A stretch of DNA of 64,000 nt from Omnitrophica bacterium GWA2_41_15 (GCA_919902675.1 CAKKRH010000006.1:42810-106809); one strand, 5' to 3'. Shown: positions 254 to 58,869, numbered from the stretch's first letter. A program made the numbers and translations. The notes: a model not told the origin generated them from the letters alone.

Positions 254-607
254 TCACTTCTTGCCTGCCGGCTTGTCTCTATTGAATGATACTACTTTTT
301 TACGCTTTAAGCAAAATATATTTTTCAGCTGTTGCTCAAGCTGAATCAGCTTCTTTTTAACTTTCCTCCCTGAAGAATACCCGCCGATATCCCCGTTGGA
401 TTTTACCACCCGGTGGCAGGGGATTACTATAGGATAAGGGTTATTCTTTAAAGCCGTCCCTACCGCCCTCACCGCCTGGGGCGAACCGATGCGTCTGGCA
501 ACCCAGGAGTAACTGCGTGTTGAGCCAAAGGGAATCTTTAGTGCCGCCTCCCACACCCGCAGTTGAAAGGCGCTAAAACGAATACTATCCGCCTTTTTCT
601 CCATCAA
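254..607 (-). CDS. ogt: Methylated-DNA--protein-cysteine methyltransferase (Ogt/MGMT)
   Basis: 117 aa. Contains the active-site motif IPCHRVV and the DNA-binding helix context YSWVARRIGSPQAVRAVG. Confidence 0.9.
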   Translation of the reverse strand: MMEKKADSIRFSAFQLRVWEAALKIPFGSTRSYSWVARRIGSPQAVRAVGTALKNNPYPIVIPCHRVVKSNGDIGGYSSGRKVKKKLIQLEQQLKNIFCLKRKKVVSFNRDKPAGKK

Positions 608-1820: not shown

Positions 1821-3340
1821 TGAATGACCTTTTTGATTTCGGCTGAATCCAGAATAAGCGCGCCCAAAATAAAAATTAACAGACCGGATAGCGCCGCGGC
1901 GCTTACTCTGGCTAAAGGCGAACGCGCGACCAAACACCGGCCATAAATATAAAAACTGGCCGCGGAAGCTATCAAGGAAGAAAAAAGAATCTTGGTGAAA
2001 ACCCGGCTTAAATACCGGCCGCCCAGCGGGCCGATCTTTTTTCTTAAAGAATGAAAAAGGATAAAAAAATTAATACCTCCGGATAAGCTGGTAGCTAAAG
2101 CCAGGCCCTTTAATTTTAAAGGATACATCAGAATAAGGTTAAAAACAATATTAACTAAGAGTGAAGCCGCGGTTATCTTAAGCGGGGTCTTGGTGTCTTT
2201 AAGAGAAAAAAATCCCGAGACCAGCACCTTGTTGGCGGAATAAAAACTTAAGGATAAAGCGTAAAACAAAAGCGCTCCGGAGGTAATCTCCGTGGAATAG
2301 GCGTCAAATCTCCCCCCTTGAAACAGGGCCGCGACTATCGGCTTAGCCAAAACAGCCATAAGCGCTGAAACCGGAAGCATAATCAAAAAAACAGCAATCA
2401 AGGAAAAATTCAGCGTCTTCTTGAAATTATCCAAATTATCCTCCAGCGCCTGATGAGATAGAGAAGGCAGGGCCGCCTGAGCGATAGCTATCCCGAATAT
2501 CCCTAAGGGAAATTGGAAAATCCGGTTGGCAAAATATAAGGCGGAAATCGCTCCCTGGCCCACTATATGAGCCAAAGAACCGAGTATCGTATCCACAAAG
2601 AGATTAAGCTGATAAATACAGGAACTGAATATCCGGGGAAGAATCAGTTTTCTGATTTGTCTGATCCCCGGATGATGCGGCTTAAGCGCCGTAGAATAGC
2701 GAAAACCTTTTTTATAGAGCATCGGTATCTGTACTGCTAATTGTAATACTCCTCCGGCCAAGACCCCCAGGGCCAGGCCCAGCGTTGTCTCTTTGTAAAT
2801 AACAGCAAAGACAATTATGGAGATATTCAAAAAACAGGGGGCAAGGCTTGAGATGGCAAAAGACTTAAGAGAATTCAATATCCCCATACAGTAGGCGCTC
2901 AAGGCAATCAGCAATAAATAAGGATAAATGATTCTGGTCAGCCGGACTGTTTCCTGAAACTTTAGCGCGTCAGAGCTAAAGCCGGGAGCAATCAGGCGCA
3001 CAATCCAGGGAGAAAATACCACCCCCAGGATAGTAAGCGCCGCCAGGATGACTAAGAGGATATTTAATAAGCAATTAGCCAGATGCCAGAAATCCTCTTT
3101 GGATTTCTTAGCCGCGTATTCGCTGAATACCGGGACAAAGGCCGCGTTCATCGCCCCCTCGGCCACCATATCCCGCAAGAGATTGGGAATCCTGAATGCC
3201 ACCACAAAGGCCTGGGAATACATACCCGTGCCGAAAAACCGGGCAATCACCACATCCCGGATAAAACCGAGTGAGCGCGAACACAAAGTAAAGAAACCGA
3301 TTAAGGAAGCCGAACGGGCAATTTCTTTATTGGTTGACAT
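1799..3340 (-). CDS. murJ: Lipid II flippase MurJ/MviN
   Basis: 513 aa polytopic membrane protein. The N-terminus (SRSLGFIRDVVIARFFGTG...AFVVAFRIPNLLR) is typical of MurJ. Confidence 0.9.
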   Translation of the reverse strand: MSTNKEIARSASLIGFFTLCSRSLGFIRDVVIARFFGTGMYSQAFVVAFRIPNLLRDMVAEGAMNAAFVPVFSEYAAKKSKEDFWHLANCLLNILLVILAALTILGVVFSPWIVRLIAPGFSSDALKFQETVRLTRIIYPYLLLIALSAYCMGILNSLKSFAISSLAPCFLNISIIVFAVIYKETTLGLALGVLAGGVLQLAVQIPMLYKKGFRYSTALKPHHPGIRQIRKLILPRIFSSCIYQLNLFVDTILGSLAHIVGQGAISALYFANRIFQFPLGIFGIAIAQAALPSLSHQALEDNLDNFKKTLNFSLIAVFLIMLPVSALMAVLAKPIVAALFQGGRFDAYSTEITSGALLFYALSLSFYSANKVLVSGFFSLKDTKTPLKITAASLLVNIVFNLILMYPLKLKGLALATSLSGGINFFILFHSLRKKIGPLGGRYLSRVFTKILFSSLIASAASFYIYGRCLVARSPLARVSAAALSGLLIFILGALILDSAEIKKVIQWVLRKK

Positions 3341-3370
3341 AAGTCGAAAGGTATGGTATATTTTTTTATA

Positions 3371-3503
3371 AACACTAAATTCTAAGCTCTAAACACTAAA
3401 CAAATCCAAGAAGATAAACTCTAAACTCAAAAGTTTGTTTTGAATTTGGAGTTTGGGATTTTGAGTTTGTTTAGAATTTAGAGCTTCGGGTTTAGGATTT
3501 TTA
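3371..3503. repeat. Long imperfect AT-rich palindrome built from ctaaa/ctaaac words, in the murJ-rpsT divergent spacer
   Basis: The left arm (aagctctaaa..ctaaacaaa..aaactctaaactcaaaag) pairs with the reverse complement of the right arm (ttttgaatttggagttt..tttgtttag..tttagagctt). Confidence 0.5.
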
Positions 3504-3539
3504 ACATCAATCAATAATCACTTTAACGGAGGATATTAA

Positions 3540-3815
3540 ATGGCTCCACGCAGACGCCAATCGCTAAAAGCACAGCGTAAGGACAAAAAAAGACACACCC
3601 GCAATCAGCAGGTAAAAACAGCGCTCAAGAAAACCCTTAAGAAATTAGAAGTCTCCTTCACCGAGAAAAAGGCGCAAGAGGCCAAGCAAACGCTTAAAGA
3701 GGCGATTTCTAAGCTGGCTAAGGCCGCCAAAAAAGGCGTCCTGCACAAAAACACCGCCCAGCGTAAAATCTCCCGCCTGAGCAGAAGATTAGTCAAATTA
3801 GGCCAGGGCGCATAA
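3540..3815 (+). CDS. rpsT: 30S ribosomal protein S20
   Basis: 91 aa basic protein, MAPRRRQSLKAQRKDKKRHTRNQ...HKNTAQRKISRL. An RBS (ggagga) lies upstream. Confidence 0.9.
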   Translation: MAPRRRQSLKAQRKDKKRHTRNQQVKTALKKTLKKLEVSFTEKKAQEAKQTLKEAISKLAKAAKKGVLHKNTAQRKISRLSRRLVKLGQGA

Positions 3816-4463
3816 TTTCACCACCAAGGCCTCTAAGGCAAACTCTGGCTTAACTTTGCCGGTTTTTAGATTAAGGTCGGCTTCCATTAGGAGGCTGACC
3901 TTTTCTTTTTTCTCTTTTAACCTCAAACTGTCTGCGGCGGATGAAAAAGAATCGCCTTTAACAAAGCGATAACGCAAGGCTCCCAGTATCCTCTCCGGTT
4001 TTTCTCCGTTTCTAAACAAATCTACCAGCATATTCAAGGCTGAATCCGCGTCTTTTCTTTCAATGGCCCGGGCCAAACCAAAGGCGTCAATTTTCTCTTT
4101 GGCCTTAAAAGGAATAACTTTGCCACGCCTGGAGATTTTATTAAAAAACCCACTTTCCTCTTTAGGGATAACGGCGGACTCTAAAATCAAAATTAAATCT
4201 ACTGGCAGTTTTTCTATTTGAGCCGCGAAATAATCCTTGAGCTCATCCTTAAGCTTAAAAACATCCTTAATTATTATTATTCTTTGGGGAGATTCCAGGG
4301 GAATACGGCTGAAGGCTTCTTTAAATAGGGGCAGGGTTAGCTCTTTAGCATAAAAGGATTCACAATTAAAATCCTCAAAGCCTTTTTTAAGTAACTCACT
4401 TTTTAAAGAATTTATTTTTTCCTGCTTGGCGGGTTCATCTTCTCCGACAAAAAGATAAAGCAT
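3798..4463 (-). CDS. holA: DNA polymerase III delta subunit-like (short form)
   Basis: N-terminus is MLYLFVGEDEPAKQEKI. The gene lies next to lptE, echoing the E. coli leuS-lptE-holA order. At about 221 aa it is shorter than canonical HolA. The start at 4463 is the M8 of the track ORF. Confidence 0.55.
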   Translation of the reverse strand: MLYLFVGEDEPAKQEKINSLKSELLKKGFEDFNCESFYAKELTLPLFKEAFSRIPLESPQRIIIIKDVFKLKDELKDYFAAQIEKLPVDLILILESAVIPKEESGFFNKISRRGKVIPFKAKEKIDAFGLARAIERKDADSALNMLVDLFRNGEKPERILGALRYRFVKGDSFSSAADSLRLKEKKEKVSLLMEADLNLKTGKVKPEFALEALVVKLCALA

Positions 4464-4465
4464 CT

Positions 4466-4570
4466 TAATGATGACAAAGGACAAAATTCAAATGACAAAA
4501 CCAATATTTTCTTACACGTATGGACACTTTGGATTTATTTTGAATTTTGCGCTTTGATATTTGTCATTAA
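4466..4570. repeat. Intercistronic imperfect hairpin (ttaatgatgacaaa..caaaattcaaa / tttgaattttg..tttgtcattaa)
   Basis: The inverted arms were read directly. The element fills the lptE-holA gap. Confidence 0.5.
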
Positions 4571-4576
4571 CGCTTC

Positions 4577-5134
4577 CTACCAGTTCTCAACTAAGCGTTC
4601 AAGCACCCGCCGGGCCAAATCAGCTATAGCATCGTCAAGGGCGGTCTTCTCGGTCTTGGCCTGGGCGCCGCTGGCAAAATAAGTCGCGTCTCCCACAAAA
4701 TTAGGTTCGTCCCAGAGAGGAATTTCCTCCCCTTTTTTGAAAAGCTTCAGGCGCATTATCAGGCTGATGCGGTATTCGGAAACATCTTCCTGGTTATTTT
4801 CATAGCGCAGGGCGTCCCTTTGATAGTCAATCAGCTCGCCTTTTAAAACTATATCCGCGTCTTCTTTTTTAGCCGGGCGTATTCCTCCGTCATACATAAA
4901 ACGGTTGATAACCGCGGTGCGGATATCACTTTCTAACAGCGGATGATAGGTCCTGAATCTCTGCGAAAGGCCGGTAGCATCCTCTGAAAGCAGGTCAACC
5001 TTATTAGCAAAGGGCTCAACAAAGATAGTCTTATACGGTCCACGGTAGATCGTGCGGCTGGTATAGCCGCAGCCGAACAAAGCAGAAAGCAGAAAGCAGA
5101 AAGCAGAAAGCGAAAAAATATTGCGTTTTTTCAT
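4577..5134 (-). CDS. lptE: LPS-assembly lipoprotein LptE-like
   Basis: Lipoprotein signal peptide with lipobox LFGC. The size (185 aa) and the position next to holA and the BamD-like gene fit LptE. Confidence 0.6.
   Translation of the reverse strand: MKKRNIFSLSAFCFLLSALFGCGYTSRTIYRGPYKTIFVEPFANKVDLLSEDATGLSQRFRTYHPLLESDIRTAVINRFMYDGGIRPAKKEDADIVLKGELIDYQRDALRYENNQEDVSEYRISLIMRLKLFKKGEEIPLWDEPNFVGDATYFASGAQAKTEKTALDDAIADLARRVLERLVENW
5079..5111. repeat. Perfect heptanucleotide tandem repeat (aaagcag x4.7) inside the lptE signal-peptide coding region
   Basis: Counted directly: four perfect 7-nt units plus a 5-nt partial unit. It encodes ...SAFCFLLSALF... Confidence 0.9.
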
Positions 5135-8871: not shown

Positions 8872-10245
8872 TTACCTTCCTATATAAAAATAAGAAAATG
8901 GCAAGCCGCTTAATTGATGCGCAATCTTAAACAGCCAAAACATAGAAAAATCTATAGTTACCGCTATTGGTAAGGCTATTACCGGACAAATCAGTGCCGA
9001 TAAACAAAGAGTAAATCCCAATATTATCACCAGGCTAACCAAGGGCACGATAATCAGGTTTGCCAATATGGCTACAGGAGTTATAATCCGGAAATAATAA
9101 AGGATAAACCAAAAAGTAGAAAGCCAGGCCGCCAGGGAAACCGCCAGGCTGTTTACCATAAACCTGATTGCCGGGCTTGCTTTGGGTTTTAATTGAAACC
9201 GGCTGATAATCCGGGGAGATAATAACACGATTCCTAAAACGCTGACAAAAGAAAGCTGAAAACCGATGTCAAATATCTGCCTGGGGTTATAACCCAGGAT
9301 TATCAGGGCGGACAGGCTTAAACTGTTAATGATATGCGTATCCCTTTCCAGCAGATATCCGATTAAAACCACTACCGCCATCAAAGTAGCCCTAACTACC
9401 GAGGCCTGGGCCCCTACGGCGAACATATGAATAAACAAGATAGGAATAGCCAGAGAATAGCGGCATTTACGCTTTATTCTTATGGCCTTCAATAAAAAGA
9501 GAACGGTAAAAACCACTATTCCCACATTAAAGCCGCTGATGGCAATGATATGGGCGGTGCCGGTGCGGGTAAAATCCTCCCGGACCTGGGCCAAAAGGCC
9601 CTGCCGGTCTCCCAGGGTTATCGCTGATAAAACAGCGCTGTTTGCCGGTTGGAGATATTTCTCAAATATACCTTTCAGCCGCTGTTTAATCCTAAAAGCT
9701 AAAGAAATGAATAAATTTCCCTTATCCCGGCCCAAAAAGATAATTTCCCTTTCTTTACCCGCCTCCAGAATATAATAAATCCCCTGGTTTTTCAGATACT
9801 CTGGGTAGGAAAAACTTGAGTTAGCGCTAAAATTAAAAGGCCGATGCAAATTACCCTCTAAAATCAGCTCTTCGCCATAATGAAAGTCCCGGCGGCTAAA
9901 GGCATTGACCAAAATCTCTCCGCGGACAAAATAAGCCCTGTCCGCGACAATCAGTTTTTTAACCTTGAAGTAAAAACTGGTCTTGCGCCGAGTGGATGCC
10001 GGGTCATTATTCACAATCCCCTGGATCCGCGCGCCCAAACTTCCCTTAATCTTTAAAGAGCCGATATGCCCCGGAGGCAATAAATTATAATTCCGGGTAT
10101 GCGTTGCCCCCAGAAAGAGGCAAAACAATAAAAAGGCCCAGAAAAAAACCGCCTTTTTATTTGTGAATAAAAAAGCGGTTAAAAGCATGGCCGCGGATAA
10201 AACCAGCCAGAACCAAAAGTGGATATTGATAAAATTACCCGCCAA
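8872..10245 (-). CDS. comEC: ComEC/Rec2 competence channel (DUF4131 plus competence domain, no metallo-beta-lactamase domain)
   Basis: 457 aa polytopic protein. Contains the motif FTRTGTAHIIAISGFNVGIV. Confidence 0.85.
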   Translation of the reverse strand: MAGNFINIHFWFWLVLSAAMLLTAFLFTNKKAVFFWAFLLFCLFLGATHTRNYNLLPPGHIGSLKIKGSLGARIQGIVNNDPASTRRKTSFYFKVKKLIVADRAYFVRGEILVNAFSRRDFHYGEELILEGNLHRPFNFSANSSFSYPEYLKNQGIYYILEAGKEREIIFLGRDKGNLFISLAFRIKQRLKGIFEKYLQPANSAVLSAITLGDRQGLLAQVREDFTRTGTAHIIAISGFNVGIVVFTVLFLLKAIRIKRKCRYSLAIPILFIHMFAVGAQASVVRATLMAVVVLIGYLLERDTHIINSLSLSALIILGYNPRQIFDIGFQLSFVSVLGIVLLSPRIISRFQLKPKASPAIRFMVNSLAVSLAAWLSTFWFILYYFRIITPVAILANLIIVPLVSLVIILGFTLCLSALICPVIALPIAVTIDFSMFWLFKIAHQLSGLPFSYFYIGR

Positions 10246-10657: not shown

Positions 10658-10658
10658 A

Positions 10659-10767
10659 TCGCGGAACTTACGCGGAACTGGACGCGAAATCACGCGGAAT
10701 TATACGCAGAACCACGCGCAACCTGTATTGCGTGGTTCTGCGTAATGTTCCGCGTATTTCAGCGATT
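10659..10767. repeat. REP-like palindromic element, copy 1 (core ACGCAGAACCACGC / GCGTGGTTCTGCGT)
   Basis: Perfect 14-bp core stem with a 12-nt loop plus imperfect outer arms (gcggaac motifs). It exactly fills the leuS-comEA gap. Confidence 0.85.
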
Positions 10768-14527: not shown

Positions 14528-14581
14528 GATTCCGTTTTACATTAAAACGGAATCCACCAACTCTTTCATTAATGAAAGAGT

Positions 14582-14587
<6 letters not shown>
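14528..14587 (-). terminator. Two consecutive perfect hairpins in the tRNA-Ala 3' trailer
   Basis: The first is a 17-bp stem (ccaccaactctttcatt/aatgaaagagttggtgg, 14554-14587) that includes the tRNA CCACCA 3' end. The second is a 12-bp stem (gattccgtttta/taaaacggaatc, 14528-14554). Confidence 0.6.
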
Positions 14588-14657
<70 letters not shown>

Positions 14658-14666
14658 GAAAAGAAT

Positions 14667-14703
14667 CGCGGAACTTACGCGGAAGACCACGCAAAACTAC
14701 GCC
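14667..14703. repeat. REP-like element, half copy (left arm only)
   Basis: The sequence cgcggaacttacgcggaagaccacgcaaaactacgcc matches the left arm of the 10659 element. No right arm is present. Confidence 0.6.
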
Positions 14704-14773
14704 TGATTGTCATTTTGTAAACTACCGATAATGTTTTACTATGAAGAAAGTATTATAGCGGCTTTTTCTCTGT

Positions 14774-14802
14774 TTGACAAACAATATTTTAGGTGCTATT
14801 AT
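14774..14802 (+). promoter_or_regulatory. Sigma70-type promoter for tRNA-Leu
   Basis: TTGACA (14774-14779), a 17-nt spacer, then TATTAT (14797-14802), 18 nt upstream of the tRNA 5' end. Confidence 0.6.
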
Positions 14803-14820
14803 TTGAATCTATCCTCTCTT

Positions 14821-14903
14821 GCCGGGGTGGTGGAATGGCAGACACGCCGGTCTCAAAAACCGGTGGGGTTACACCCATGAGGGTTCAACTCCCTCCCCCG
14901 GCA
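14821..14903 (+). tRNA. tRNA-Leu (anticodon CAA), long variable arm, no encoded CCA
   Basis: Acceptor stem GCCGGGG/CCCCGGC. Anticodon arm CCGGT-CTCAAAA-ACCGG. Variable arm GTGGGGTTACACCCAT. T arm GAGGG-TTCAACT-CCCTC. Confidence 0.9.
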
Positions 14904-14920
14904 CTAAATTGTACGATTGA

Positions 14921-15122
14921 CCCAAAAGGCTATTTGTCAAATATCCTACTCGATTAAAGATTACTACAATTCTAATTCCTCGTCAATGAAATAATGCCCC
15001 GCGCCTGGGTCAGAGCTCACTCGGCGCCTTGTGGTGTATGCAGTGGTGGTTTTTGCTACGCTCGCCCCGTAGGCGGGGCTCGCTTGCAAAGGCCGCTGGG
15101 CGGCCTAAAAGAAGCACGAGGC
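14921..15122 (+). repeat. Structured repeat family, copy A (head module plus 94-nt GC-rich core)
   Basis: The head (ggctatttgtcaaatatcctactcgattaaagattactacaat) and the core (15029-15122) recur at 19399-19670 in inverted orientation. The head also recurs at 19854-19967 in direct orientation. Confidence 0.85.
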
Positions 15123-15251
15123 GGGTGTTGTGCCGCCAACATTGCGTTATCTTGTCAGTATTTAAGAAACCCTTATTTATTCTTACCGTAGTTTAGTTTT
15201 CTAGCCTTTTCGCCATTCCCGCCTTCAACTACCTAAAAAACAGAACCACAT

Positions 15252-15285
15252 GGCAAAATTTTCGCCCGTGCCCGAAAATTTTGCC
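15252..15285 (-). terminator. Hairpin terminator downstream of the BOF-like gene
   Basis: Perfect 13-bp stem (ggcaaaattttcg/cgaaaattttgcc) with an 8-nt loop. A T-rich tract follows on the minus strand. Confidence 0.55.
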
Positions 15286-15320
15286 TAATATCCACTTATC
15301 ACTTAAAAATAAAAGGTCGC

Positions 15321-15818
15321 TTACTTTCTTTTGTTCCAGAAAAATTTATTTATAGAATAGAGAAATAATAATACGAATGTTAAGAAAAGGCCAATATAAA
15401 ACTTTTTCATACTCAATTGCTTAAAAGAAGGCTCTCCCGATAGAATTTTTTTTACCTCTTGAACATGAATATCTAGATCGCCGCCATGTTCCAGACAACT
15501 GCGATTAAATATACCGCTAACCTCAATAATATCACCTTTAGTGCGGTAACAGCCAAGATAAATAATATCCTTAAGGTCGGCTTTTCTTACCCAGACGCCA
15601 ATAGCTACATATCCGTCATTCACGTGCAGCCATGCGTGATCTCCGCGGATCATAACCTCTCCAATGACCTCTCCTTTGTAGCTGATAGTTTTGCCGTCAT
15701 ATTGTTTGGCATTATTTATCAAATCTAAACTCGTAGGCACTTGAGCATAACAGTTAGAACGAGAAATAATCATCCCCAGGCACAAAATTACGAGAAAGAT
15801 AAAACGTTTCACTTTCAT
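15321..15818 (-). CDS. Exported OB-fold (BOF/YgiW-like) protein with a C-terminal TM anchor
   Basis: Signal peptide, then a YgiW-like layout (AKQYDGKTISYKGEVIGEVM...GDIIEVSGIF...DIHVQEVKKI), then a hydrophobic tail (FYIGLFLTFVLLFLY). Its start overlaps the trkH stop (ATGA-type coupling). Confidence 0.45.
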   Translation of the reverse strand: MKVKRFIFLVILCLGMIISRSNCYAQVPTSLDLINNAKQYDGKTISYKGEVIGEVMIRGDHAWLHVNDGYVAIGVWVRKADLKDIIYLGCYRTKGDIIEVSGIFNRSCLEHGGDLDIHVQEVKKILSGEPSFKQLSMKKFYIGLFLTFVLLFLYSINKFFWNKRK

Positions 15819-17320
15819 CTACCTTTCAAAAACGCTACAAAAAAACCAAATAGGGCAAAAACCGATATTAGCTCAAGCCTTCCTGCCCACATCTCGATTA
15901 TATAGGTCACTTTTAATATCGCCGGCATACTTGTATCGGTTATCCCGCAGGAAAGCCCAACGTTGGCAGCCGCAGATGTTGACTCAAAAAGGGCTTCCAA
16001 AAAAGGATATCCCAACCATACCCCCACTAGAGTGCCCAATCCGTAAAGGAAAAAATATCCCAATGTAACAATCAAAACTGCTCGTACCTGCTTATCCTCA
16101 ACGAACATCATTTTTATATGATGAAACTTCTGTACTACGATAGCGCTTGGCGAAAGCATTATTCTTTTTATATCATGTCTAAATGCTTTATAAATAATTC
16201 CTACGCGCAGCATTTTAATACCCCCGGCTGTAGAGCAAGCACAACCTCCCAAAGCCATGGCCAGAATTACCCCTGTTAACGCTAAATCTCCCCACTCCTT
16301 GATAAACTGCTGAGCATATATCGTCATGTATCCGGTTGTGGTTTGTCCAGAGATAAGCTGAAAGAACCCCTTGCGAAAAATTATCATTCCATCCGAATAG
16401 ACACCCAACTTCCTCAAACCAGCCATCGTAATCAAAGTAACGATCATAATGACAAATAAGAGAGTCCGCGTTTCAATATTTTTCCAAATTTCTTTAAAAT
16501 TTCCCGTCCAGATTTGATAATGCAAATTAAAATTGAATGAGCCGACTACCATAAAGAAAATTGTGGCAATTTCAAACATCAAACTGTGATAATAAAGAAT
16601 ATTCGGGGATTGCGGGGCAAAACCTGCGGTATCAAATCCGGCCATAAAAACACAGGCAGCGTGAAAGAATGCACTTGGAGGCTTTAATCCTATAGACATC
16701 CCTACTAGACCTAACACAATGGTACCGAGAATCAAATACACAATGCTAATAGCCCAAATAAAACGCGCCGTATGCATAACGTTGGGGACTAATTTCTCAT
16801 CGCGTCCTTCCCCGAGATATAAATTAAGCGACCCACTGGTACCCCCGACCAAGAATGAAATCGCGATAATTGCGATTCCCTGCCCTCCAATAAAAGGCCC
16901 TAAGTGACGCCATAAATTATGAGTCCAGGAAAGATGATCCAGATCCTGCACAAGAGTCAGCCCTGTTGTAGTAAAACCAGACATGGTTTCGAAACAAGCA
17001 TCAAGAAACGACTTATAATGGCCGCTTAATGATAACGGTATGGCGCTAAACGCCATCGCGGCCAACCATGAAAGAGCAATAACAACCATTGCCGGACCGG
17101 CATGTAGATCATTATCCGTTTTGCATAGCCAGCTTAAAGCCAAGCCGATAAATATAGCAATATTAGCGCTTATCAAGAAATCCAGCGCAGGATTATGTTC
17201 TCTGAATAAAACAAGTCCCGCAATAAACGGCAAAAGCATGGTAAGACCAATACCGAGTATTATTCTTCCCAAATAATAGCCGATATTCTTAATATCGTTT
17301 ACTTGAGGCTTAAGTATCAT
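15815..17320 (-). CDS. TrkH/KtrB-family K+ transporter membrane subunit
   Basis: Four pore-loop glycine motifs (SGFTTTGLT, AGFDTAGF, SGQTTTGY, AAANVGLS). The start was taken at MILKPQ (17320); the track start is a TTG at 17392. Confidence 0.85.
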   Translation of the reverse strand: MILKPQVNDIKNIGYYLGRIILGIGLTMLLPFIAGLVLFREHNPALDFLISANIAIFIGLALSWLCKTDNDLHAGPAMVVIALSWLAAMAFSAIPLSLSGHYKSFLDACFETMSGFTTTGLTLVQDLDHLSWTHNLWRHLGPFIGGQGIAIIAISFLVGGTSGSLNLYLGEGRDEKLVPNVMHTARFIWAISIVYLILGTIVLGLVGMSIGLKPPSAFFHAACVFMAGFDTAGFAPQSPNILYYHSLMFEIATIFFMVVGSFNFNLHYQIWTGNFKEIWKNIETRTLLFVIMIVTLITMAGLRKLGVYSDGMIIFRKGFFQLISGQTTTGYMTIYAQQFIKEWGDLALTGVILAMALGGCACSTAGGIKMLRVGIIYKAFRHDIKRIMLSPSAIVVQKFHHIKMMFVEDKQVRAVLIVTLGYFFLYGLGTLVGVWLGYPFLEALFESTSAAANVGLSCGITDTSMPAILKVTYIIEMWAGRLELISVFALFGFFVAFLKGR

Positions 17321-17436
17321 CGTATATATTGAATTGCTAATGCGAATACTGAACCTACGCCGATAATTACCATTACATATACCGCTTCCCAAAATATCCC
17401 AAGCGTAACAGTATAAAAAATAGCTATTTTCTTCAT
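17317..17436 (-). CDS. 39-aa hydrophobic peptide translationally coupled to the K+ transporter gene
   Basis: My own translation gives MKKIAIFYTVTLGIFWEAVYVMVIIGVGSVFALAIQYIR. Its TGA overlaps the transporter ATG (ATGA). It is below the ORF-track size cutoff. Confidence 0.4.
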   Translation of the reverse strand: MKKIAIFYTVTLGIFWEAVYVMVIIGVGSVFALAIQYIR

Positions 17437-17471
17437 AGCGTTAAGTCTCCTGGCATAGAAGATTCAAATAC

Positions 17472-17499
17472 ACAAAAACCAGAGAATAAAGCCTCTGGT
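17472..17499 (-). terminator. Stem-loop plus U-run between kdpE and the K+ transporter operon
   Basis: On the minus strand: ACCAGAGgctttattCTCTGGTTTTTGTG. Confidence 0.5.
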
Positions 17500-17604
17500 A
17501 TTGTGTAAGATCTAACTTATCTTGATATTTATTCTATTGAATTACGATACGCTTGACCAACAAGGAAGGCAAGTCAAAAAAAGGTCAAAATGACGGTCTG
17601 TAGT

Positions 17605-18318
17605 TTATTCTTCCGAACGCAGGCGGTATCCCACGCCTGGCTCGGTTAAGATATAGGTAGGCCGATCCGGATTAGGCTCGATCTTGCTTCGCAGATTGCT
17701 GATCGTGACTCGTAATAGATGCAGAATACCTTCAAAATATTCGGTCTTATCCCATACTTCCCGAAGTACTTGCCGGTGAGTAAGTACTTTTCCGGCATTT
17801 AAGAGAAACAGCTTAAGCAACTCATATTCTATAGGAGATAGTTCAACTTCATTATTACCGATTGAAACCCTTCGTTTTGTAATATCCATGCAAAGTTTAC
17901 CCACCTTAAGAACTTCTTCTTTGTCCAGCGGCAAAAGACGCCTCATCACTGCGCGCAGGCGCGCCAATAGCTCTTCCGTAGAAAACGGTTTGGTAAGATA
18001 GTCATCTGCTCCCGCATCGAGTGCGGCAATTTTTTCAGCCGGATCATCTCGTACCGACAAGATAACAATCGGGGTTTTCGTACGTTTACGGATTCTAGCT
18101 ATAACTTCCCTGCCGTCAATATCGGGAAGCCCCAAATCGAGAATGATTACATCAGGATGAACATCAACCGTTTCTTCCAATGCTTTTTTTCCTGTAGCCG
18201 CTTCAAAAATGCTATAGCCATAGTAAGAAAGCGATGTCTTAAGAAAACTGCGTATGGCTTTTTCATCGTCAACAACAAGAATTCTTAAATTACCCTGCTC
18301 ATACATTACATTACTCAT
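17605..18318 (-). CDS. kdpE: OmpR/KdpE-family response regulator
   Basis: Receiver domain (ILVVDDE, VIILDLGLPDIDG) plus a winged-helix output domain (LTHRQVLREVW...GVGYRL). It overlaps the kinase gene stop. Confidence 0.8.
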   Translation of the reverse strand: MSNVMYEQGNLRILVVDDEKAIRSFLKTSLSYYGYSIFEAATGKKALEETVDVHPDVIILDLGLPDIDGREVIARIRKRTKTPIVILSVRDDPAEKIAALDAGADDYLTKPFSTEELLARLRAVMRRLLPLDKEEVLKVGKLCMDITKRRVSIGNNEVELSPIEYELLKLFLLNAGKVLTHRQVLREVWDKTEYFEGILHLLRVTISNLRSKIEPNPDRPTYILTEPGVGYRLRSEE

Positions 18319-19346
18319 TCTAATGGGAGCTCCACAGTAAAGGTGGATCCTTTGCCGGGTGTACTTTCGACACTAATCTCGCCGCCATGGGCCTCGATAA
18401 TACCTTTTGAAATACACAAGCCCAGCCCGGTGCCTAATACATTTTGAGACCGCTCTACCCGGTAGAACTTCTCAAAGATTCGCTTAAGGTCTTCTCTGGA
18501 AATGCCAAGGCCATAATCTTGTATCTTCACTTGCACCTTACGCTGAACAAAGGTCGCACGTATTTCAACCGGTGAGCCATCCGGAGAATACTTCAAGGCG
18601 TTATCAATAACATTAAAGAACGCTTTGAGTATAAACGGAAAATCTACGGCTATTTCAGGGAAATCCTTAGGAATGTCTATTTTTATATCTCTGGCACCTA
18701 TTTTGTCTTTTAGCTGCTCTAAACACGCACCCATAAGGTCTCTTAAATCGCATGGTTTTTTGGAAATCCGCAATACCCCGGACTCCATTTTTGTCATATC
18801 TAAAAGATTGTTTACAATTCGATTAAGTCGATCCGATTCTCCTAGTGCCGTTTCCGAGAGTTCTCTTATATGCTGTGCATCTAAACTCGACTTCCTATCC
18901 AAAAGAGCGGTCAATGCCCCGGTTATTGAAACAAGGGGGGTCTTTAAATCATGGGAAATGGAATTTAATAAAGCCGTTTGGAGTTTCTCCGTTTGTCGCT
19001 GGATAATTTGCTCTCTCACCTTAGATGCAAAAGTGCTAACGACAATCCCAACAACCAAAAAGGCAACAAAAGTAAAGACATACTGAATATGATTAACGCT
19101 GAATGTTAAATAAGGAGGTACCAGGAAGAAGTCAAAAACCAGAACACTTATAATGGAAGTCGCAATAGCAGGGCCCCTGCCCCAGCGGATAGCGACAAAG
19201 ACGACAGCCAGAAGATAGAACATAACGATGTTAGTCGGTTCAAGTCTCTTTTTAACCAGTTCGCCGAAAAGAGTGGTAAGAAAAACCAATCCGCAGCTTA
19301 TAATATAGGGTAAAATTCTATTTCTTTGGGATTGTATAAATGCCAT
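18315..19346 (-). CDS. KdpD C-terminal-type sensor histidine kinase (DUF4118 TM domain, HisKA, HATPase) without the N-terminal KdpD/Usp domains
   Basis: DUF4118-like TM block (NIVMFYLLAVVFVAIRWGRGPAI...). H-box SISHDLKTPL. G-boxes DYGLGI and GTGLGLCISKGIIEAHGG. Confidence 0.8.
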   Translation of the reverse strand: MAFIQSQRNRILPYIISCGLVFLTTLFGELVKKRLEPTNIVMFYLLAVVFVAIRWGRGPAIATSIISVLVFDFFLVPPYLTFSVNHIQYVFTFVAFLVVGIVVSTFASKVREQIIQRQTEKLQTALLNSISHDLKTPLVSITGALTALLDRKSSLDAQHIRELSETALGESDRLNRIVNNLLDMTKMESGVLRISKKPCDLRDLMGACLEQLKDKIGARDIKIDIPKDFPEIAVDFPFILKAFFNVIDNALKYSPDGSPVEIRATFVQRKVQVKIQDYGLGISREDLKRIFEKFYRVERSQNVLGTGLGLCISKGIIEAHGGEISVESTPGKGSTFTVELPLE

Positions 19347-19398
19347 GCGTTAAATTATAGCACATAATTTTACCATTAGTAATGATGAATTGCGGATT

Positions 19399-19670
19399 GC
19401 CTCGTGCTTCTTTTAGGCCGCCCAGCGGCCTTTGCAAGCGAGCCCCGCCTACGGGGCGAGCGTAGCAAAAACCACCACTACATACACCACAAAGCGCCAG
19501 CAATGATGATAAGGATTGAATGCGCCAACACGCCATCATCCCCGCCGTTCAGGCGGGGACAGGAGGGGCACAAAAAATATCAGAAACTATAATTTCGTTG
19601 ACGAGCCGTTATTATTGTAGTAATCTTAAATCGAGTAGGATATTTGAAAAATAGCCTTTCGGGTATTCCT
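19399..19670 (-). repeat. Structured repeat family, copy B (inverted relative to A, with a roughly 95-nt extra structured insert)
   Basis: The 94-nt core at 19399-19492 is nearly identical to the reverse complement of 15029-15122. The head module lies at 19612-19670. The extra insert contains an 8-bp GC hairpin (tccccgcc/ggcgggga). Confidence 0.85.
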
Positions 19671-19853
19671 CATACGAAGGGCACCATGTCTTACGGTTAA
19701 CCCCAAAGAGTTAATTTTTTGGGGTAAAGCCAAAAAATAAAGGTGAACTCATCAAACGAAATTCACCTTTTGGTAAATTTCCCGCAAAATTTTCTCTTGC
19801 CCTATAGGGCAAGACGCTTCGGGGAAATACTGCTAAATGGTGCCCCTGGTCTA

Positions 19854-19988
19854 AGGAATGCCCAAAAGGCAATTTGTCAAATAAACTATTCCCTTAAAGA
19901 TTACTACAATCATAATAACTCATCAATGAAATAATGCCTCGCGCCTGGGTCCGGGCTCACTCGGCGCTGCGGCCTGCTGAGCTTTTTA
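19854..19988 (+). repeat. Structured repeat family, copy C (head module, truncated, ending in a hairpin plus T-run)
   Basis: The sequence ggaatgcccaaaaggcaatttgtcaaat...aaagattactacaat...aatgaaataatgcctcgcgcctgggtccgggctcactcggcgc matches copy A. It then ends ...ctgagcttttt. Confidence 0.8.
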
Positions 19989-20065
19989 TTAACAAAACTA
20001 GAGAACTACTAAATTTCCAGCAACGCTAGGTTTTTTTTTGCGCTTAATTCATAGTATTAAAATCG

Positions 20066-20929
20066 CTATGCTAATTCCAAACGCGCTAGTCGTTCTCCAA
20101 TGATCTTAATAAATTGCTCTTGATCTTCTTTTGTGATTTCTGAAGCCTTAATTGTCGATTCCATAACAGTTAAGCTCTTTTGAAACTTTTCGTACCGAAT
20201 TTTTATTGGCACCTTTAAATAATCTGCCAGTTTATCAAAATCATCTCGCTTCAACTCGTTCTTTTTGCCATTGATAGATAAGGCGGAATCTTCTTCAGCA
20301 GGGATAACTAATTTTGAACAGACAATATCGTATGCAGGTGTTAAACGAATAGAATCCTTATCTTTATAGGCGATGGAATAATTTTTTAAATGGGCGTCTC
20401 CATTGCCAATAATAAAATTAAAGACAACTCTTTCAAAAAGCAATTGTGTATCATATCCCGGAGCTGTTGATTTTTCGCTCAATTTTTTCCCAATTTGCTC
20501 AATGGACCCCTTGTATTTGTCTGTTTCTAATATTTGCGAGAAGTCTTCCTGATGGATTTTTACCCCCGATGCCCTATCAAATCTTTTCACGATATATGCC
20601 AAACTTTTATCTTTTAAAGGCAAGATACAATGAGGTGGAACGTCTATCTTAAATTCTGCCGCTATATCCATACAGCACTGTTCATTCTGCGGAATATCTT
20701 GAAAAGCCGGATTTTGTGGTTTTAGTATATGCTCCCCGCCTTCAGCAACAACAATTAGCGAGTTACTCCTTTTGTCAAGTTTTACGGATAATTTTGGCTG
20801 GGTTCCTGAAATAGATAGTTTTCCTGTCAATTGCTGTGCTTTTTGAAATACTTCTCTCAAGCTAAATTCTATTATCGGTAATTCAGAAGCACCAAACATC
20901 TCTTTTATAAGCTTTCTGCTCATTTCCAT
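20066..20929 (-). CDS. hipT: HipT-like Ser/Thr kinase toxin (HipA core without N-subdomain 1)
   Basis: Catalytic loop IGNGDAHLKNYS, and SISGTQPKLS (P-loop-like). The start MEMSRKL at 20929 lies 3 nt after the hipS stop. Confidence 0.8.
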   Translation of the reverse strand: MEMSRKLIKEMFGASELPIIEFSLREVFQKAQQLTGKLSISGTQPKLSVKLDKRSNSLIVVAEGGEHILKPQNPAFQDIPQNEQCCMDIAAEFKIDVPPHCILPLKDKSLAYIVKRFDRASGVKIHQEDFSQILETDKYKGSIEQIGKKLSEKSTAPGYDTQLLFERVVFNFIIGNGDAHLKNYSIAYKDKDSIRLTPAYDIVCSKLVIPAEEDSALSINGKKNELKRDDFDKLADYLKVPIKIRYEKFQKSLTVMESTIKASEITKEDQEQFIKIIGERLARLELA

Positions 20930-22038: not shown

Positions 22039-22569
22039 ATGAATATAAGTAGCCTGATTTCCGCGGAAACAATAGCCGCAAAGATTATAATTGTAAGAGA
22101 CAAAAGAGTTATGCTGGATAGGGATTTAGCGCAACTTTACGGGGTTGAAACAAGGGCATTAAACCAAGCTGTGAAAAGGAATATATCCCGCTTCCCGGAG
22201 GATTTTATGCTTTCTCTAACCCGGGAGGAGATTTTAAGGATATCACAATTTGTGATATCCTTAAAATTCTCTAAAACCGCATATGCCTTTACCGAACAAG
22301 GTGTATCTATGCTTTCCAGCGTTTTAAACAGCGAAAGAGCTATACAAGTCAACATTCTGATTATGCGCGCCTTCACCAGGTTAAGAGAAATTCTTCTCAC
22401 GCATAAAGACTTGGCAATAAAGATTGAAGCGCTGGAGAAGAAATACACCGAACACGATCAGACCATAAAGACGATATTTGGGGCAATCAAGCAACTTCTT
22501 GAGCCGCTACCGGAAAAACCAAAGCCGCGAATCGGGTTTCGCTCTTATGAAGAGCCTACGAGGAGGTAA
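22039..22569 (+). CDS. ORF6N (KilA-N-related) DNA-binding domain protein
   Basis: N-terminus is IIIVRDKRVMLDRDLAQLYGVETRALNQAVKRNISRFPEDFMLSLT. An RBS (agaggtgg) lies upstream. Confidence 0.75.
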   Translation: MNISSLISAETIAAKIIIVRDKRVMLDRDLAQLYGVETRALNQAVKRNISRFPEDFMLSLTREEILRISQFVISLKFSKTAYAFTEQGVSMLSSVLNSERAIQVNILIMRAFTRLREILLTHKDLAIKIEALEKKYTEHDQTIKTIFGAIKQLLEPLPEKPKPRIGFRSYEEPTRR

Positions 22570-22573
22570 AAAT

Positions 22574-23077
22574 ATGGCTTACTTGATTTCTACAGAACTA
22601 ATAACCAGTAAAATCTTTGTGCTAAGGGGTAAAAAGATAATGTTGGATAGAGATTTAGCCCTGCTTTATAGTGTAACAACTAAACGGCTAAATGAACAGG
22701 TAAGGAGAAATATGAAACGGTTTCCTGGGGATTTTATGTTTCAATTAACAAAAACCGAGAAAAATGAACTGGTCGCAATTTGCGACCGGTTCGATTCTAT
22801 GAAACATTCAACGGTTTTACCTTATGCCTTTACCGAACAAGGCGTAGCTATGCTCTCAAGCGTCCTAAACAGCGAACGCGCAATAATGGTCAATATACAA
22901 ATAATGCGGGCATTTATTCAACTAAAACGGTTGCTATTAACCAACGTAGACCTCAGGCGCAAGATTGAGGAAATGGAAAAGAAATACGACAAGCAGTTTG
23001 CCATAGTCTTTCAGGCCATTAAGCAATTACTGGAGCCGCCACCAGCAAAGCCGAAGCCGCGAATTGGGTTTCGTTAG
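22574..23077 (+). CDS. ORF6N domain protein, tandem paralog
   Basis: Starts at MAYLIS after the RBS gaggagg. It has the same architecture as the upstream gene and the same C-terminus (LLEPPPAKPKPRIGFR). Confidence 0.75.
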   Translation: MAYLISTELITSKIFVLRGKKIMLDRDLALLYSVTTKRLNEQVRRNMKRFPGDFMFQLTKTEKNELVAICDRFDSMKHSTVLPYAFTEQGVAMLSSVLNSERAIMVNIQIMRAFIQLKRLLLTNVDLRRKIEEMEKKYDKQFAIVFQAIKQLLEPPPAKPKPRIGFR

Positions 23078-23879: not shown

Positions 23880-24333
23880 TACTCACCTTATCCCCTATTT
23901 CAATTTTATTCCTCCGGCAAAATCCCGCGTCCACCTCTAAAGCATATAACGCCTTAGCGTGAGGCTCAAAGATTTCACAGCTTTTTTCTCTATCCCCTCC
24001 GGTAAAACTTTCGCAGATCTCCTGGCAAGGAGAAAGATCGGGCTTTATATCAACAACCATTTTACCCTTGTCAATCCAGATAATATCTATGGGAAATTTC
24101 ATATTCTTCATCCAGAAGCCGTATCGGCCTTCGGCTTCAAAGACAAAAAGCATCCCCTGGCCCTGGGGCAGATTTTCCTTGAACATCAGCCCCTGCTGTC
24201 TGGCGGCATCGGTATCCACAACTTCCGCCCTGACACAGGCATCCTTAATACAAACCTTCTTAAGCGCCTCCTGGCTTAAGACATAAGAAAGGCAATTTAA
24301 AGAAAATATAAAAAACAGGGTAAATGCTCTCAT
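23866..24333 (-). CDS. DUF192 domain secreted protein
   Basis: Signal peptide MRAFTLFFIFSL, with the start taken at 24333. DUF192 core GMLFVF...FWMKNMKFPIDIIWID. Confidence 0.7.
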   Translation of the reverse strand: MRAFTLFFIFSLNCLSYVLSQEALKKVCIKDACVRAEVVDTDAARQQGLMFKENLPQGQGMLFVFEAEGRYGFWMKNMKFPIDIIWIDKGKMVVDIKPDLSPCQEICESFTGGDREKSCEIFEPHAKALYALEVDAGFCRRNKIEIGDKVSIDGY

Positions 24334-24411
24334 TTTGAAGATGTTTAAAATCAATAAGTTATGTTATAATTATTATACTACAAAATTTTTGGGAATAAAA
24401 CCGGAAGTTTT
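24324..24411 (+). repeat. 88-bp perfect direct repeat, copy 1 (partner at 31649-31736)
   Basis: Compared base by base and found identical. It contains an extended -10 (tgtTATAAT, 24365-70). Weaker homology continues to about 24470. Confidence 0.9.
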
Positions 24412-24425
24412 CACGTACCGTCTAA

Positions 24426-24491
24426 ATGAAAAGACGGAAAGCAGGGGAAGATTTAAATTTAATTAATGCCACTGTGCGCGGAATTTCTTAA
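24426..24491 (+). pseudogene. Remnant of an ECF sigma factor 5' end
   Basis: The 21-codon ORF MKRRKAGEDLNLINATVRGIS parallels MPEDLELINRFLSG of the intact gene at 31767. DNA match: gaagatttaaatttaattaa versus gaagacttagaattaattaa. Confidence 0.5.
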
Positions 24492-31648: not shown

Positions 31649-31736
31649 ATGCTCTCATTTTGAAGATGTTTAAAATCAATAAGTTATGTTATAATTATTA
31701 TACTACAAAATTTTTGGGAATAAAACCGGAAGTTTT
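31649..31736 (+). repeat. 88-bp perfect direct repeat, copy 2
   Basis: Identical to 24324-24411. Confidence 0.9.
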
Positions 31737-31745
31737 TGCGTCTAA
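31687..31745 (+). promoter_or_regulatory. Candidate tandem promoters for the ECF sigma gene at 31767
   Basis: The first is an extended -10, TGtTATAAT (31687-95). The second is an ECF-type promoter: GGAAT (31717-21), a 17-nt spacer, then CGTCTAA (31739-45). Confidence 0.45.
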
Positions 31746-31766
31746 TCTAATAGAAGGGCGAAAAAT

Positions 31767-47829: not shown

Positions 47830-47912
47830 CGCTGAACAACGCGGAACTTTACGCAGAACCACGCAATATAAGTTGTGCGTAGTTCAGCGTATAATTCCGC
47901 ATAAGTTCCGCG
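47830..47912. repeat. REP-like palindromic element, copy 2
   Basis: Sequence gctgaacaacgcggaactttacgcagaaccacgca...tgtgcgtagttcagcgt...ttccgcataagttccgcg. Confidence 0.8.
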
Positions 47913-48686
47913 CTATTTCCCGGGATGTTCCTGCTTAAACGGTATCACCGGAGCTGTCCAGGGGGTCTGCTGATTGATCACCGCGATCTCTAAAGGACAG
48001 ACATTAGCCGGCACCGTAAGGGCAAACTTAAGCGCGTTCTCAATGGCCTCGGTAGTCATCAGCCGCGAGATGTCAGCGGTTACCTCTTTAAGCTTTCCGG
48101 TTAAATCAGTATCGGTTACTCCCGGTAAGATCGAAGTTACCTTTATCCCATGGTCGCGCATCTCCCAAAACAACCCCTTGCAAAAAGCCTTAAGCCCTAC
48201 CTTTAGCGAGCTATAAACAATAAAACTTCTGGGCACCGGGTCGCAAAGGGTAGAGCCAGAAACCATATTGATAATCGCTCCGGACTTATTCTTAATCATA
48301 TCATTTATCACTAAGCGGATTAAGCGCACATACCCCAGATAATTAGTATGCACTAAGCTCTCAAAGTCCTCAAATGGCTGTTTCTCAAAAGGGTATTGGC
48401 TGGAGACCCCGGCGTTATTGATCAAGATATCAATCTTACCGAACCTCTCCTTGGCCTTATTGACCAGATTTTCCAAATCGCTTAACTTAGTTACATCGCA
48501 GGCTACCGGTAAGACTTCTACCTTATATTTTTTACGGATTTCCTCCGCGGTCTCCTTCAGCGGCCCTTCAGTGCGCGCGGCTATGGTCAAGTTAATCCCT
48601 AGACTTGCCGCGGTAGAAGCCAAGGCCTTACCAATCCCCCGGCTGGCCCCGGTAACAATCGCGGTCTTTCCTTTTAAGTCAGACAT
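47913..48686 (-). CDS. Short-chain dehydrogenase/reductase (ketoreductase-type)
   Basis: Contains TGASRGIG, NNAG and YSSLK. Confidence 0.85.
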   Translation of the reverse strand: MSDLKGKTAIVTGASRGIGKALASTAASLGINLTIAARTEGPLKETAEEIRKKYKVEVLPVACDVTKLSDLENLVNKAKERFGKIDILINNAGVSSQYPFEKQPFEDFESLVHTNYLGYVRLIRLVINDMIKNKSGAIINMVSGSTLCDPVPRSFIVYSSLKVGLKAFCKGLFWEMRDHGIKVTSILPGVTDTDLTGKLKEVTADISRLMTTEAIENALKFALTVPANVCPLEIAVINQQTPWTAPVIPFKQEHPGK

Positions 48687-55000: not shown

Positions 55001-55105
55001 CTTTCCTCACTTCGTTCGTAAAGCGCGAAACTACGCAGAACCATACGCAGAACTACGCTCAACGTGTTGTGCGTGGTTTTGCGTTACGTTCCGCGTGGTT
55101 CAGCG
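55001..55105. repeat. REP-like palindromic element, copy 3
   Basis: Sequence ...gcgcgaaactacgcagaaccatacgcagaactacgc...gtgcgtggttttgcgttacgttccgcgtggttcagcgc. It shares a ctttcctcacttcgttcg extension with copy 4. Confidence 0.8.
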
Positions 55106-58750: not shown

Positions 58751-58869
58751 CTTCCCTCGCTTCGCTCGGGCGCTGAACTATGCGGAACTTTACGCAGAAC
58801 CACGCCTGCCGGCAGGCAGGCAATACAAGTTGTGCGTAGTTCCGCGTACTATTCCGCGCGGTTCCGCGA
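58751..58869. repeat. REP-like palindromic element, copy 4 (with a GC-rich ctgccggcaggcagg loop insert)
   Basis: Sequence cgctgaactatgcggaactttacgcagaaccacgc...gtgcgtagttccgcgtactattccgcgcggttccgcg. It overlaps the last codons of the ligase ORF. Confidence 0.8.

Follow-up and report, generated by a model that had tools for sequence, protein, structure and literature searches.

The window analyzed here, a 64-kb stretch of one strand of DNA from Omnitrophica bacterium GWA2_41_15 (coordinates are those of the whole stretch; L-numbers designate related loci and P-numbers proteins), carries three copies of a structured repeat, A, B and C, next to a tRNA-Leu gene and around a K+ uptake operon. Our analysis indicates that these copies are probably end modules, now decayed, of a genomic-island system of Omnitrophota that has a large serine recombinase (LSR) at its center and tRNA 3′ ends as anchors. 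This interpretation builds on homologies, on junctions, on a recurrent architecture and on covariation in the common form of the module (type I). Each repeat would correspond to the last codons of the LSR, hereafter the head, followed by the hairpin-rich non-coding stretch that came after a now lost LSR gene. The resulting layout would be, from left to right, tRNA-Leu(caa), the scar of a P′ arm, the K+ operon between inward-facing copies A and B, a collapsed LSR unit and the truncated copy C. All LSR bodies would have been deleted, between short direct repeats at A and between the palindromic hairpins of the unit arms at B and C, and cargo genes would be placed between two inward-facing modules. 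In such a scenario, the mobile array would have brought in or rearranged the operon for K+ uptake, which has toxin-antitoxin and ORF6N genes as neighbors. The presence of three unusual repeats, the palindromic head-to-head pair and the proximity to tRNA-Leu would thereby all be explained by a single decayed mobile-element array.

The nature of the head was revealed by its relatives. A search pattern built on the three window heads and on two heads of relatives, shortened by 2 bases for the scan, recovered 35 metagenome loci, often at contig ends and in one case two in the same 359-kb contig. Five further loci were found in the GTDB representative genomes, a set that did not include the window's own genome; three of them are titled Omnitrophota, one belongs to an unclassified bacterium and one to a Dehalococcoidia metagenome-assembled genome. 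At four loci (L019, L021, L039, and L047), an open reading frame (ORF) of 527–567 aa with Resolvase, Recombinase and Zn_ribbon_recom domains terminates within the head. When the L019 LSR (527 aa) was compared with the window by tblastn, matches were obtained only at C (residues 461–527, 76%, 19731–19931), at A (residues 495–527, 69%, on 14884–14991) and at B (residues 452–527, 51%), and no LSR body was found anywhere in the 64 kb. The first-pass annotation of this DNA had reported no ORF, transposase or integrase in the repeat, which holds for intact genes; the head itself is the 3′ fragment of an integrase gene. An LSR with Resolvase, Recombinase and zinc-ribbon domains adjoins the repeat in L019, L021, L039, L061, and L062, the window keeping 3′ fragments only. 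Among protein families, the LSR matched NCBIfam CcrB (E 5e-69) and phrog_95 (PHROG 95, phage serine integrases; E 1e-129), with a CcrB score far under the equivalog cut-off (233 vs. 900 bits) and a phage integrase match also below its cut-off. Because these matches end at residue ~470, the tail encoded by the head lies outside the known fold. The left edge of the repeat is sharp, since homology upstream is lost at −58 to −65 from the start of the pattern, i.e., at (TGG)/TGCCC (the slash marks the junction), in most copies with upstream sequence, and the left flanks of the head copies are unrelated to each other.

Two classes of LSR homologues can be told apart by their C-termini, and they part exactly at the head junction. 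In the first class, the C-terminus is the head-encoded tail, whose motif YS[LI]xDYY is visible down to 45% identity. In the second class, it is a short tail translating the antisense of a tRNA 3′ end, as in P0132, which ends in GARRGS followed by the stop (reverse complement of tRNA-Leu(cag)), and in P0142, which ends in GAGGGS followed by the stop (reverse complement of tRNA-Leu(caa)) and is near-identical to P0124 until the junction. Since both classes split at one junction, one enzyme gene is joined to either the head or a tRNA, and we infer that the alternative C-termini arise from inversion or re-joining at the junction site. The first ~23 nt of the head loosely resemble the reverse complement of the tRNA-Leu 3′ end (10–11 of 21 positions, by eye). 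The head was also considered as a decayed opposite-strand tRNA, an idea abandoned on reading the sequence because the resemblance is limited to the last ~23 nt and there is no acceptor partner.

Intact versions of the system were observed in Omnitrophota contigs, where the LSR is carried inside a 1.7-kb unit with flanking inverted repeats of 113–164 nt (L019, L039, L021, L061, L062, and L063). The repeats measure 161–164 nt in the first three of these loci, with 99, 99, and 90% identity, respectively, and the two arms of intact units are 1366 nt apart. The left arm adjoins the 3′ end of a tRNA (Leu-gag, Leu-caa or Phe in L019, L039, and L021) with the junction GGCA/CCAT. The right arm encodes roughly residues 445–497 and ends in CTAAATGG/TGCCC, which is the start of the head; the LSR frame crosses this right junction (AAATGG/TGCCC) for ~30–38 further codons, which are the head. 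The putative cleavage site of the LSR is GG/TG/CC or lies no more than a few nt from it. In three genomes (L039, L061, and L062), the intact unit is preceded by the same pair of tRNA-Ala (minus strand) and tRNA-Leu(caa) (plus strand) as the window, i.e., it occupies the window's locus. The same design was found at tRNA-Glu in L063, with perfect arms of 113 nt; at that locus, an IS4-type DDE transposase (3296–4606) sits inside the left inverted repeat of the LSR unit, the arm being split into 113 + 35 nt. L062 also contains, between a module and tRNA-Ala, a recombinase of a second family, which has arms of its own. A perfect 34-nt palindrome in the window (14554–14587, CCACCAACTCTTTCATTAATGAAAGAGTTGGTGG), which adjoins the 3′ end of tRNA-Ala(ggc), resembles both outer ends of this second L062 unit and may be a fully collapsed unit of the second recombinase family.

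The window itself was then read against these units. The array is anchored at tRNA-Leu(caa) (14821–14904, plus strand), divergent from tRNA-Ala(ggc) (14582–14657, minus strand), both called by ARAGORN and Rfam. In L021, tRNA-Phe ends in GGCA and is followed by CTGTATTGTAAGGTTGACCCTAAAGG (the outer arm) and then by the LSR unit, which terminates in CAG/TGCCCTTCGTCTGAGGAATACCCAAAAGG/CTATTTGTC. In the window, tRNA-Leu also ends in GGCA and is followed by CTAAATTGTACGATTGACCCAAAAGG and directly by CTATTTGTC; read against L021, CTAAATTGTACGATTGACCCAAAAGG (14904–14929, plus strand) is the scar of a P′ arm, the outer end of the LSR-unit inverted repeat. Copy A is obtained when the sequence between ACCCnAAAGG of the P′ arm and ACCCAAAAGG of the head is removed. 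As far as can be read from the sequences, copy A is the tRNA-Leu(caa) site after a putative deletion of the LSR unit between two ACCCnAAAGG repeats. The same scar was found after tRNA-Leu(cag) in L024 and the same string after tRNA-Leu in L017. Between B and C, a collapsed LSR unit of 157 nt (19684–19840) whose LSR body is deleted was recognized. It consists of the P′ outer arm (19684–19729), of which 19693–19724 is 94% identical over 32 nt to the outer end of the L063 inverted repeat, and of the P arm (19730–19840, LSR codons ~461–497, plus strand), 19730–19844 being 95% identical to the L039 arm. Both arms fuse at a palindromic hairpin (19739–19770) that is present in every arm. This collapse of a unit to its two arms accounts for B and C standing head to head, as the first-pass annotation had correctly described.

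The three copies lie where that annotation had placed them, with their inverted and near-identical A/B core, for which a repeat search of the window gave 100 nt (15023–15122 and 19399–19498) with 98% complementarity. The extents had been drawn too short, as A reaches ~15314, B starts at 19683 rather than at 19670, and C starts at 19730. Head similarity amounts to 87% over 107 nt between A and C, 87% over 76 nt between A and B, and 79% over 99 nt between B and C, and head sub-motifs occur exactly three times in the 64 kb for 0.05–0.8 occurrences expected by chance. A three-way alignment showed a head common to the three copies and, in agreement with the earlier description, a linker that is longer in B than in A. 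Apart from A, B and C, no module fragment was found in the 64 kb, where the core occurs only twice. The copy A head (14920–14994, plus strand) is a remnant of the last ~25–33 LSR codons according to tblastn and blastn, with the stop codon of the family (TAA) at 14992–14994, and is 84–94% identical by blastn to more than 15 family members. It is followed by a complete structured module of type II (14978–15314, plus strand), assigned by homology to L038, L026, L030, and L033, with a closing helix CCUCGU/ACGAGG predicted by RNAalifold (14978–14983/15116–15121), the core and its two GC hairpins, which had already been noticed (15064–15079 and 15090–15106), and tail hairpins at 15120–15137 and 15252–15285. 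Up to ~15314, the tail shares 77–82% identity with the same four loci. Copy B (19399–19683, minus strand) was delimited by blastn to L038 and by the tblastn match to LSR residues 452–527. It comprises a head starting with TGCCCTTCG (19589–19683), a long linker with a hairpin (19539–19559) and the core (19399–19498); it has no type II tail and stops where the operon's own upstream region starts. Over 290 nt it is 92.8% identical to L038, which runs on into the tail and has LSR coding sequence before it. Copy C (19841–19990, plus strand; tblastn and blastn) contains a head (TGCCCCTGG to the stop TAA at 19932–19934) and the first hairpin region, and a terminator scan found a terminator-like hairpin with a T-run at 19955–19990, the rest of the module being missing. 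Upstream of its head, 110 nt of further LSR coding sequence were found, from 19730.

The stretch behind the LSR stop codon is a sharply bounded, hairpin-rich region of 0.2–0.35 kb. In type I, homology extends ~340 nt beyond the stop codon and its right edge is sharp near GCCGAGCCTCTTG..TTGAGA. RNAalifold applied to 16 type I copies gave 54 pairs, with double changes that compensate each other in 21, and two long-range helices. In this alignment, 96.6% of the cells are paired as compared to 85.7% after column shuffling, a value reached by none of 500 shuffles, and controls with slid partners gave 30–47%. G-U combinations are more numerous than A-C (36 vs. 7), which favors the LSR-sense strand. 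Type II is found in the window copies and in L026, L030, L033, and L038; its two-hairpin core is similar to the pair of hairpins at the center of type I, its closing helix CUCGU/ACGAG is predicted by RNAalifold in six of six copies with one U-G wobble in L033, and its conserved, AU-rich tail ends in a GGCAAAATTT hairpin. Single-sequence folding was uninformative (z-scores of −1.8, −2.5, and 0.0). As had been anticipated, the repeat corresponds to no known RNA family: with Rfam 15, only tRNAs passed the gathering threshold in the window and nothing relevant appeared at E ≤ 10 in 14600–20300, no match was obtained on the module in ten related loci, and the best weak match of a type I module was Glutamine-II (19.5 bits vs. 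a threshold of 33). Neither plasmid and phage collections (blastn) nor viral contigs (head and core patterns, 0 matches) contained the repeat. Gene calls on identical contigs placed no gene inside copy B or C, and a small protein encoded in the core or tail was rejected, since it is only the near-identity of A and B that keeps the ORFs open and the tail has no conserved ORF. The structured region would be made as RNA, as the LSR 3′ untranslated region (UTR), with that of copy A being made by read-through from tRNA-Leu, and this RNA may act in cis on recombinase expression or on recombination. In type I modules, e.g., ~150–175 nt past the head in L043, a conserved single-stranded CUCCCnnAUCUCCCUUGCACC(G/A) resembling the sense tRNA-Leu 3′ end was also noted. 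A guide-like pairing between module and junction was considered by eye and rejected, as the only shared sequence, GCACC, stays the same whichever tRNA is the target.

As claimed initially, A and B are inverted repeats around a five-gene K+ module (15321–19346, minus strand). According to Pfam and to gene calls on identical contigs, this operon encodes a KdpD-like kinase with DUF4118-HisKA-HATPase domains (18315–19346), an OmpR-type regulator (17605–18318) and TrkH (15815–17320); a 39-aa ORF (17317–17436) and a 165-aa protein (15321–15818) come from the gene calls. Contigs with an identical kinase originate from Hainich groundwater assemblies, among other samples, and the names carried by homologues of the kinase assign the organism to Candidatus Omnitrophota. 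Eight orthologous operons, with kinases 80–94% identical, were fetched, and the five-gene unit was found in unrelated neighborhoods in L008, L009, L010, and L012, with upstream spacers of only 21–115 nt. In every operon relative, TGTGGTATAAT is followed after 6–7 nt by an ATG directly at the kinase gene, and TG(T)GGTATAAT with the same 6–7 nt before the ATG is conserved in L008, L009, L010, L012, L014, and L017. The corresponding extended −10 promoter of the window, TGTGCTATAAT (19354–19364, minus strand), lies 7 nt before the kinase ATG and is conserved in relatives. Such a position implies a leaderless kinase mRNA, as judged from sequence. Inward-facing modules around cargo were found in three other loci, namely L014, which holds the same K+ operon between arms 100% identical over 105 nt, L062, with NYN and HTH cargo (99% over 95 nt), and L019 (98% over 125 nt). 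In each bracket, the cargo-proximal ~100 nt are near-identical, and the outer parts show 79–88% identity in L062, as in the window. As such brackets exist at three further loci, the K+ operon seems to be captured cargo that would have kept its own conserved leaderless promoter.

Other explanations of this arrangement were weighed against the island system. Riboswitches are classically found with K+ transport operons, and copy B, which lies upstream of the operon in the same direction, could control the kinase/TrkH operon in cis as a 5′ leader or riboswitch, responding for instance to K+ or cyclic di-AMP, with A and C as duplicated leaders; L014 and L017 also carry a head-type element upstream of the operon. 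The first-pass annotation had raised this possibility from the closeness of the B core to the kinase, which is real, the distance to the ATG being 52 nt rather than 50. However, the conserved leaderless promoter lies downstream of B, between the end of its core and the kinase ATG, among relatives whose kinases are 80–90% identical the element is missing from the spacers of L008, L009, and L012 and reduced to a 40-nt head fragment in L010, the genes that follow a B-type module in L026 and L038 are unrelated, and neither ydaO nor any other riboswitch matched even at E ≤ 10. B would thus lie outside the transcribed 5′ UTR and is not conserved with the operon, and a leader role, not supported because of the promoter downstream and the relatives without the element, is largely refuted already and retains a very slight probability. 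An invertible K+ cassette, in which the A and B cores would be the recombination sites of a phase-variable switch of the 4.3-kb operon, is also very unlikely, if less remote. Inverted repeats of 100 nt and 98% identity do flank the segment (15023–15122/19399–19498), A and B show signs of sequence exchange, near-identical inner arms recur in L014, L062, and L019, and short-read contigs break within the cores. Against these observations, only one orientation was found in four independent assemblies from different samples (L001–L004), all collinear with the window, the operon promoter lies inside the segment so that a flip would not switch the operon, and no recombinase is present in the window. 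Moreover, the A tail stands at the divergence level of A and not of B, which argues against a past crossover. Indeed, B is uniformly 92–94% identical to L038, whereas A has a head at 81%, a tail at 77%, and a core at 92% (98% to B); because A is a mosaic relative to L038 while B is uniform, the most plausible origin of the A core is gene conversion, with B as the donor and an older, diverged A as the recipient, rather than a crossover. Of the three identities suggested at first (small-RNA gene family, miniature inverted-repeat transposable element (MITE)-like element, or ends of a mobilized or invertible cassette), the last comes closest, since the copies appear to be cargo-end modules of a tRNA-anchored array and the bracket recurs in L014, L019, and L062; at the level of assemblies, only one orientation was seen. 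The MITE-like description is only a loose fit. The repeat is short (~0.3–0.45 kb), non-coding, multi-copy (at least 40 loci), sharply bounded and related to an autonomous element, its left end being the LSR 3′ end; however, the module, running from TGCCCTTCG to GCCGAGCCTCTTG..TTGAGA, has no terminal inverted repeats and its flanks show no target-site duplication. Nor does the repeat resemble repetitive extragenic palindromes or bacterial interspersed mosaic elements, which are intergenic, high-copy palindromes of ~35 nt, the core occurring only twice in the 64 kb.

A different view would make the repeats an independent structured small or medium-sized RNA family with its own promoter in the head and acting in trans, the LSR link being secondary and the RNA genes perhaps serving as integration targets. 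It would account for the strong plus-strand covariation of type I, the coincidence of the 3′ end of the type II closing helix with the end of A/B similarity, the terminator-like hairpin of copy C, and the full-length modules without adjacent LSR in many loci. On the other hand, the head aligns to LSR codons and its YS[LI]xDYY tail is kept even in 45%-identical LSRs, truncation points differ (A, B, C, L023, and L033) as expected of relics, and no Rfam family matched. A sigma-70 promoter in the head (TTGTCA-17-AAGATT) was examined and discarded, as it is weak and was missed by a simple scan; the −35-like hexamer varies across the family (TTGTCA, TTTTCA, TTTCCC), the head palindrome TATTTGTCAAATA is not kept either, and the promoter-like part is an LSR coding remnant. 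This view is therefore considered unlikely. The preferred reading of A, B and C as decayed island ends nevertheless meets several difficulties. With no LSR gene in the 64-kb window, nothing shows that the system is active in this organism, and its proposed transcription step is weakened by the same poor and variable sigma-70-like hexamers. How conserved GATTACTACAA...TCAA.GAA looks in the head is biased by the search pattern, and the type II structure of the window rests on six sequences with little covariation. Among the loci compared, no excised/empty-site pair and no locus in both orientations was found, the tRNA-Leu site of the window being a deletion scar and not a clean empty site. Finally, the junctions GGCA/CCAT and ATGG/TGCC are mirror images, so they do not share the one directly oriented, non-palindromic dinucleotide of an integrative element, and an ordinary attL/attR pair whose central dinucleotide is not palindromic cannot account for both. 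Only two readings would fit, namely one site present twice in inverted orientation, as in an invertase, or a palindromic central dinucleotide (GC or AT). A bolder proposal, to which we give a similarly low probability as to the trans-acting RNA, is an undescribed recombination system in which an LSR carried in an inverted-repeat unit would act on sites mimicking tRNA 3′ ends, swap its own C-terminus and invert or shuffle bracketed cargo, the ~340-nt covarying RNA being a functional partner in expression, directionality or site choice.

Several features of the neighborhood were noted besides. Two ORF6N-domain genes stand in tandem at 22039–23077, and such genes recur just downstream of head-plus-module copies in L021 and L054; P0166 is an in-frame fusion of the N-terminal 260 aa of an LSR with an ORF6N protein. 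ORF6N genes appear to be habitual cargo of the LSR system, alongside HipBA and SIR2. The kinase gene lies downstream of only 1 of the 35 metagenome head loci. A separate repeat family with an 11-nt period (ACGCGGAACnn) forms long imperfect palindromes at 10658–10764, 14665–14702, 47830–47931, 55024–55105, and 58771–58857; two or more of them neighbor a gene end or a tRNA (the end of the leucyl-tRNA synthetase gene and tRNA-Ala), and the sequence of the family is unrelated to A, B and C. A 107-nt direct repeat with 93% identity and a GTTATAAT-like promoter sequence was found at 24324–24430 and 31649–31755, 7.3 kb apart. The tRNA-Leu(taa) called by ARAGORN at 9272–9358 was unconfirmed by Rfam and is probably a false positive. 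In the Omnitrophota contig of L024, a transfer-messenger RNA gene (2555–3190, 110 bits) overlaps at its 3′ side with a group I intron match (57 bits).

These results remove a tempting false lead, that of a new K+ riboswitch or small-RNA family. They also describe a recurrent architecture in a poorly studied phylum, with inverted-repeat LSR units at tRNA ends, an in-frame junction giving two C-termini, inverted brackets around cargo with 98–100% identity in their inner ~100 nt, and a covarying 340-nt region. Since genome engineering makes use of large serine recombinases, a clade that combines sites mimicking tRNAs, a structured RNA and perhaps self-inversion would be of interest.

No description of this LSR-unit/module architecture was found in Rfam or in the literature searched, where an Omnitrophota genome survey mentions recombinases only generally. 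The closest parallel is provided by the tycheposons of Prochlorococcus, tRNA-anchored islands with degraded remnants, a minority of which use large serine recombinases (bioRxiv 10.1101/2020.12.28.424599). Like them, the Omnitrophota system combines tRNA-adjacent islands, stacked elements and cargo modules, scattered fragmented integrases and att remnants, and nutrient-uptake cargo. It differs in that the LSR lies in its own inverted-repeat unit (113–164 nt) with the junction inside the LSR frame, the cargo brackets are inverted and not direct, a conserved structured region follows the LSR, and no replication genes were seen. Regarding the enzyme, the nearest protein families are CcrB/CcrC of the staphylococcal cassette chromosome and the phage large serine integrases (PHROG 95), with which it shares site-specific integration at the 3′ end of a housekeeping gene; however, the cassette targets rlmH instead of tRNAs and the LSR scores far below the equivalog cut-offs. 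Archaeal tyrosine integrase genes of the SSV1 type contain their own attachment site, so that recombination alters the 3′ part of the gene, C-terminal gene fragments being left in the chromosome. A recombination junction inside the integrase ORF is common to both, although SSV1 relies on a tyrosine recombinase in archaeal viruses, whereas here a serine recombinase loses only ~30–38 codons and inverted arm copies flank the gene. The Hin, Gin, Pin, and PinQ invertases (PMC12529663) and shufflons likewise carry a recombinase gene inside an inverted-repeat segment and produce alternative fusions at the repeat boundary. They differ by their small enzymes, 26-bp sites and enhancer, and no orientation polymorphism was observed in the Omnitrophota loci. 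As regards RNA partners, there is no RNA-guided enzyme here, in contrast with the TnpB omega/reRNA of IS200/IS605 and IS607 and the bridge RNA of IS110, and serine recombinases are not known to use RNA; by eye, without a systematic search, no module/junction complementarity longer than 5 nt and no change with the target tRNA were noticed. What the Omnitrophota modules share with these elements is a conserved, structured non-coding region that overlaps or adjoins the end of the enzyme gene and extends to the element boundary.

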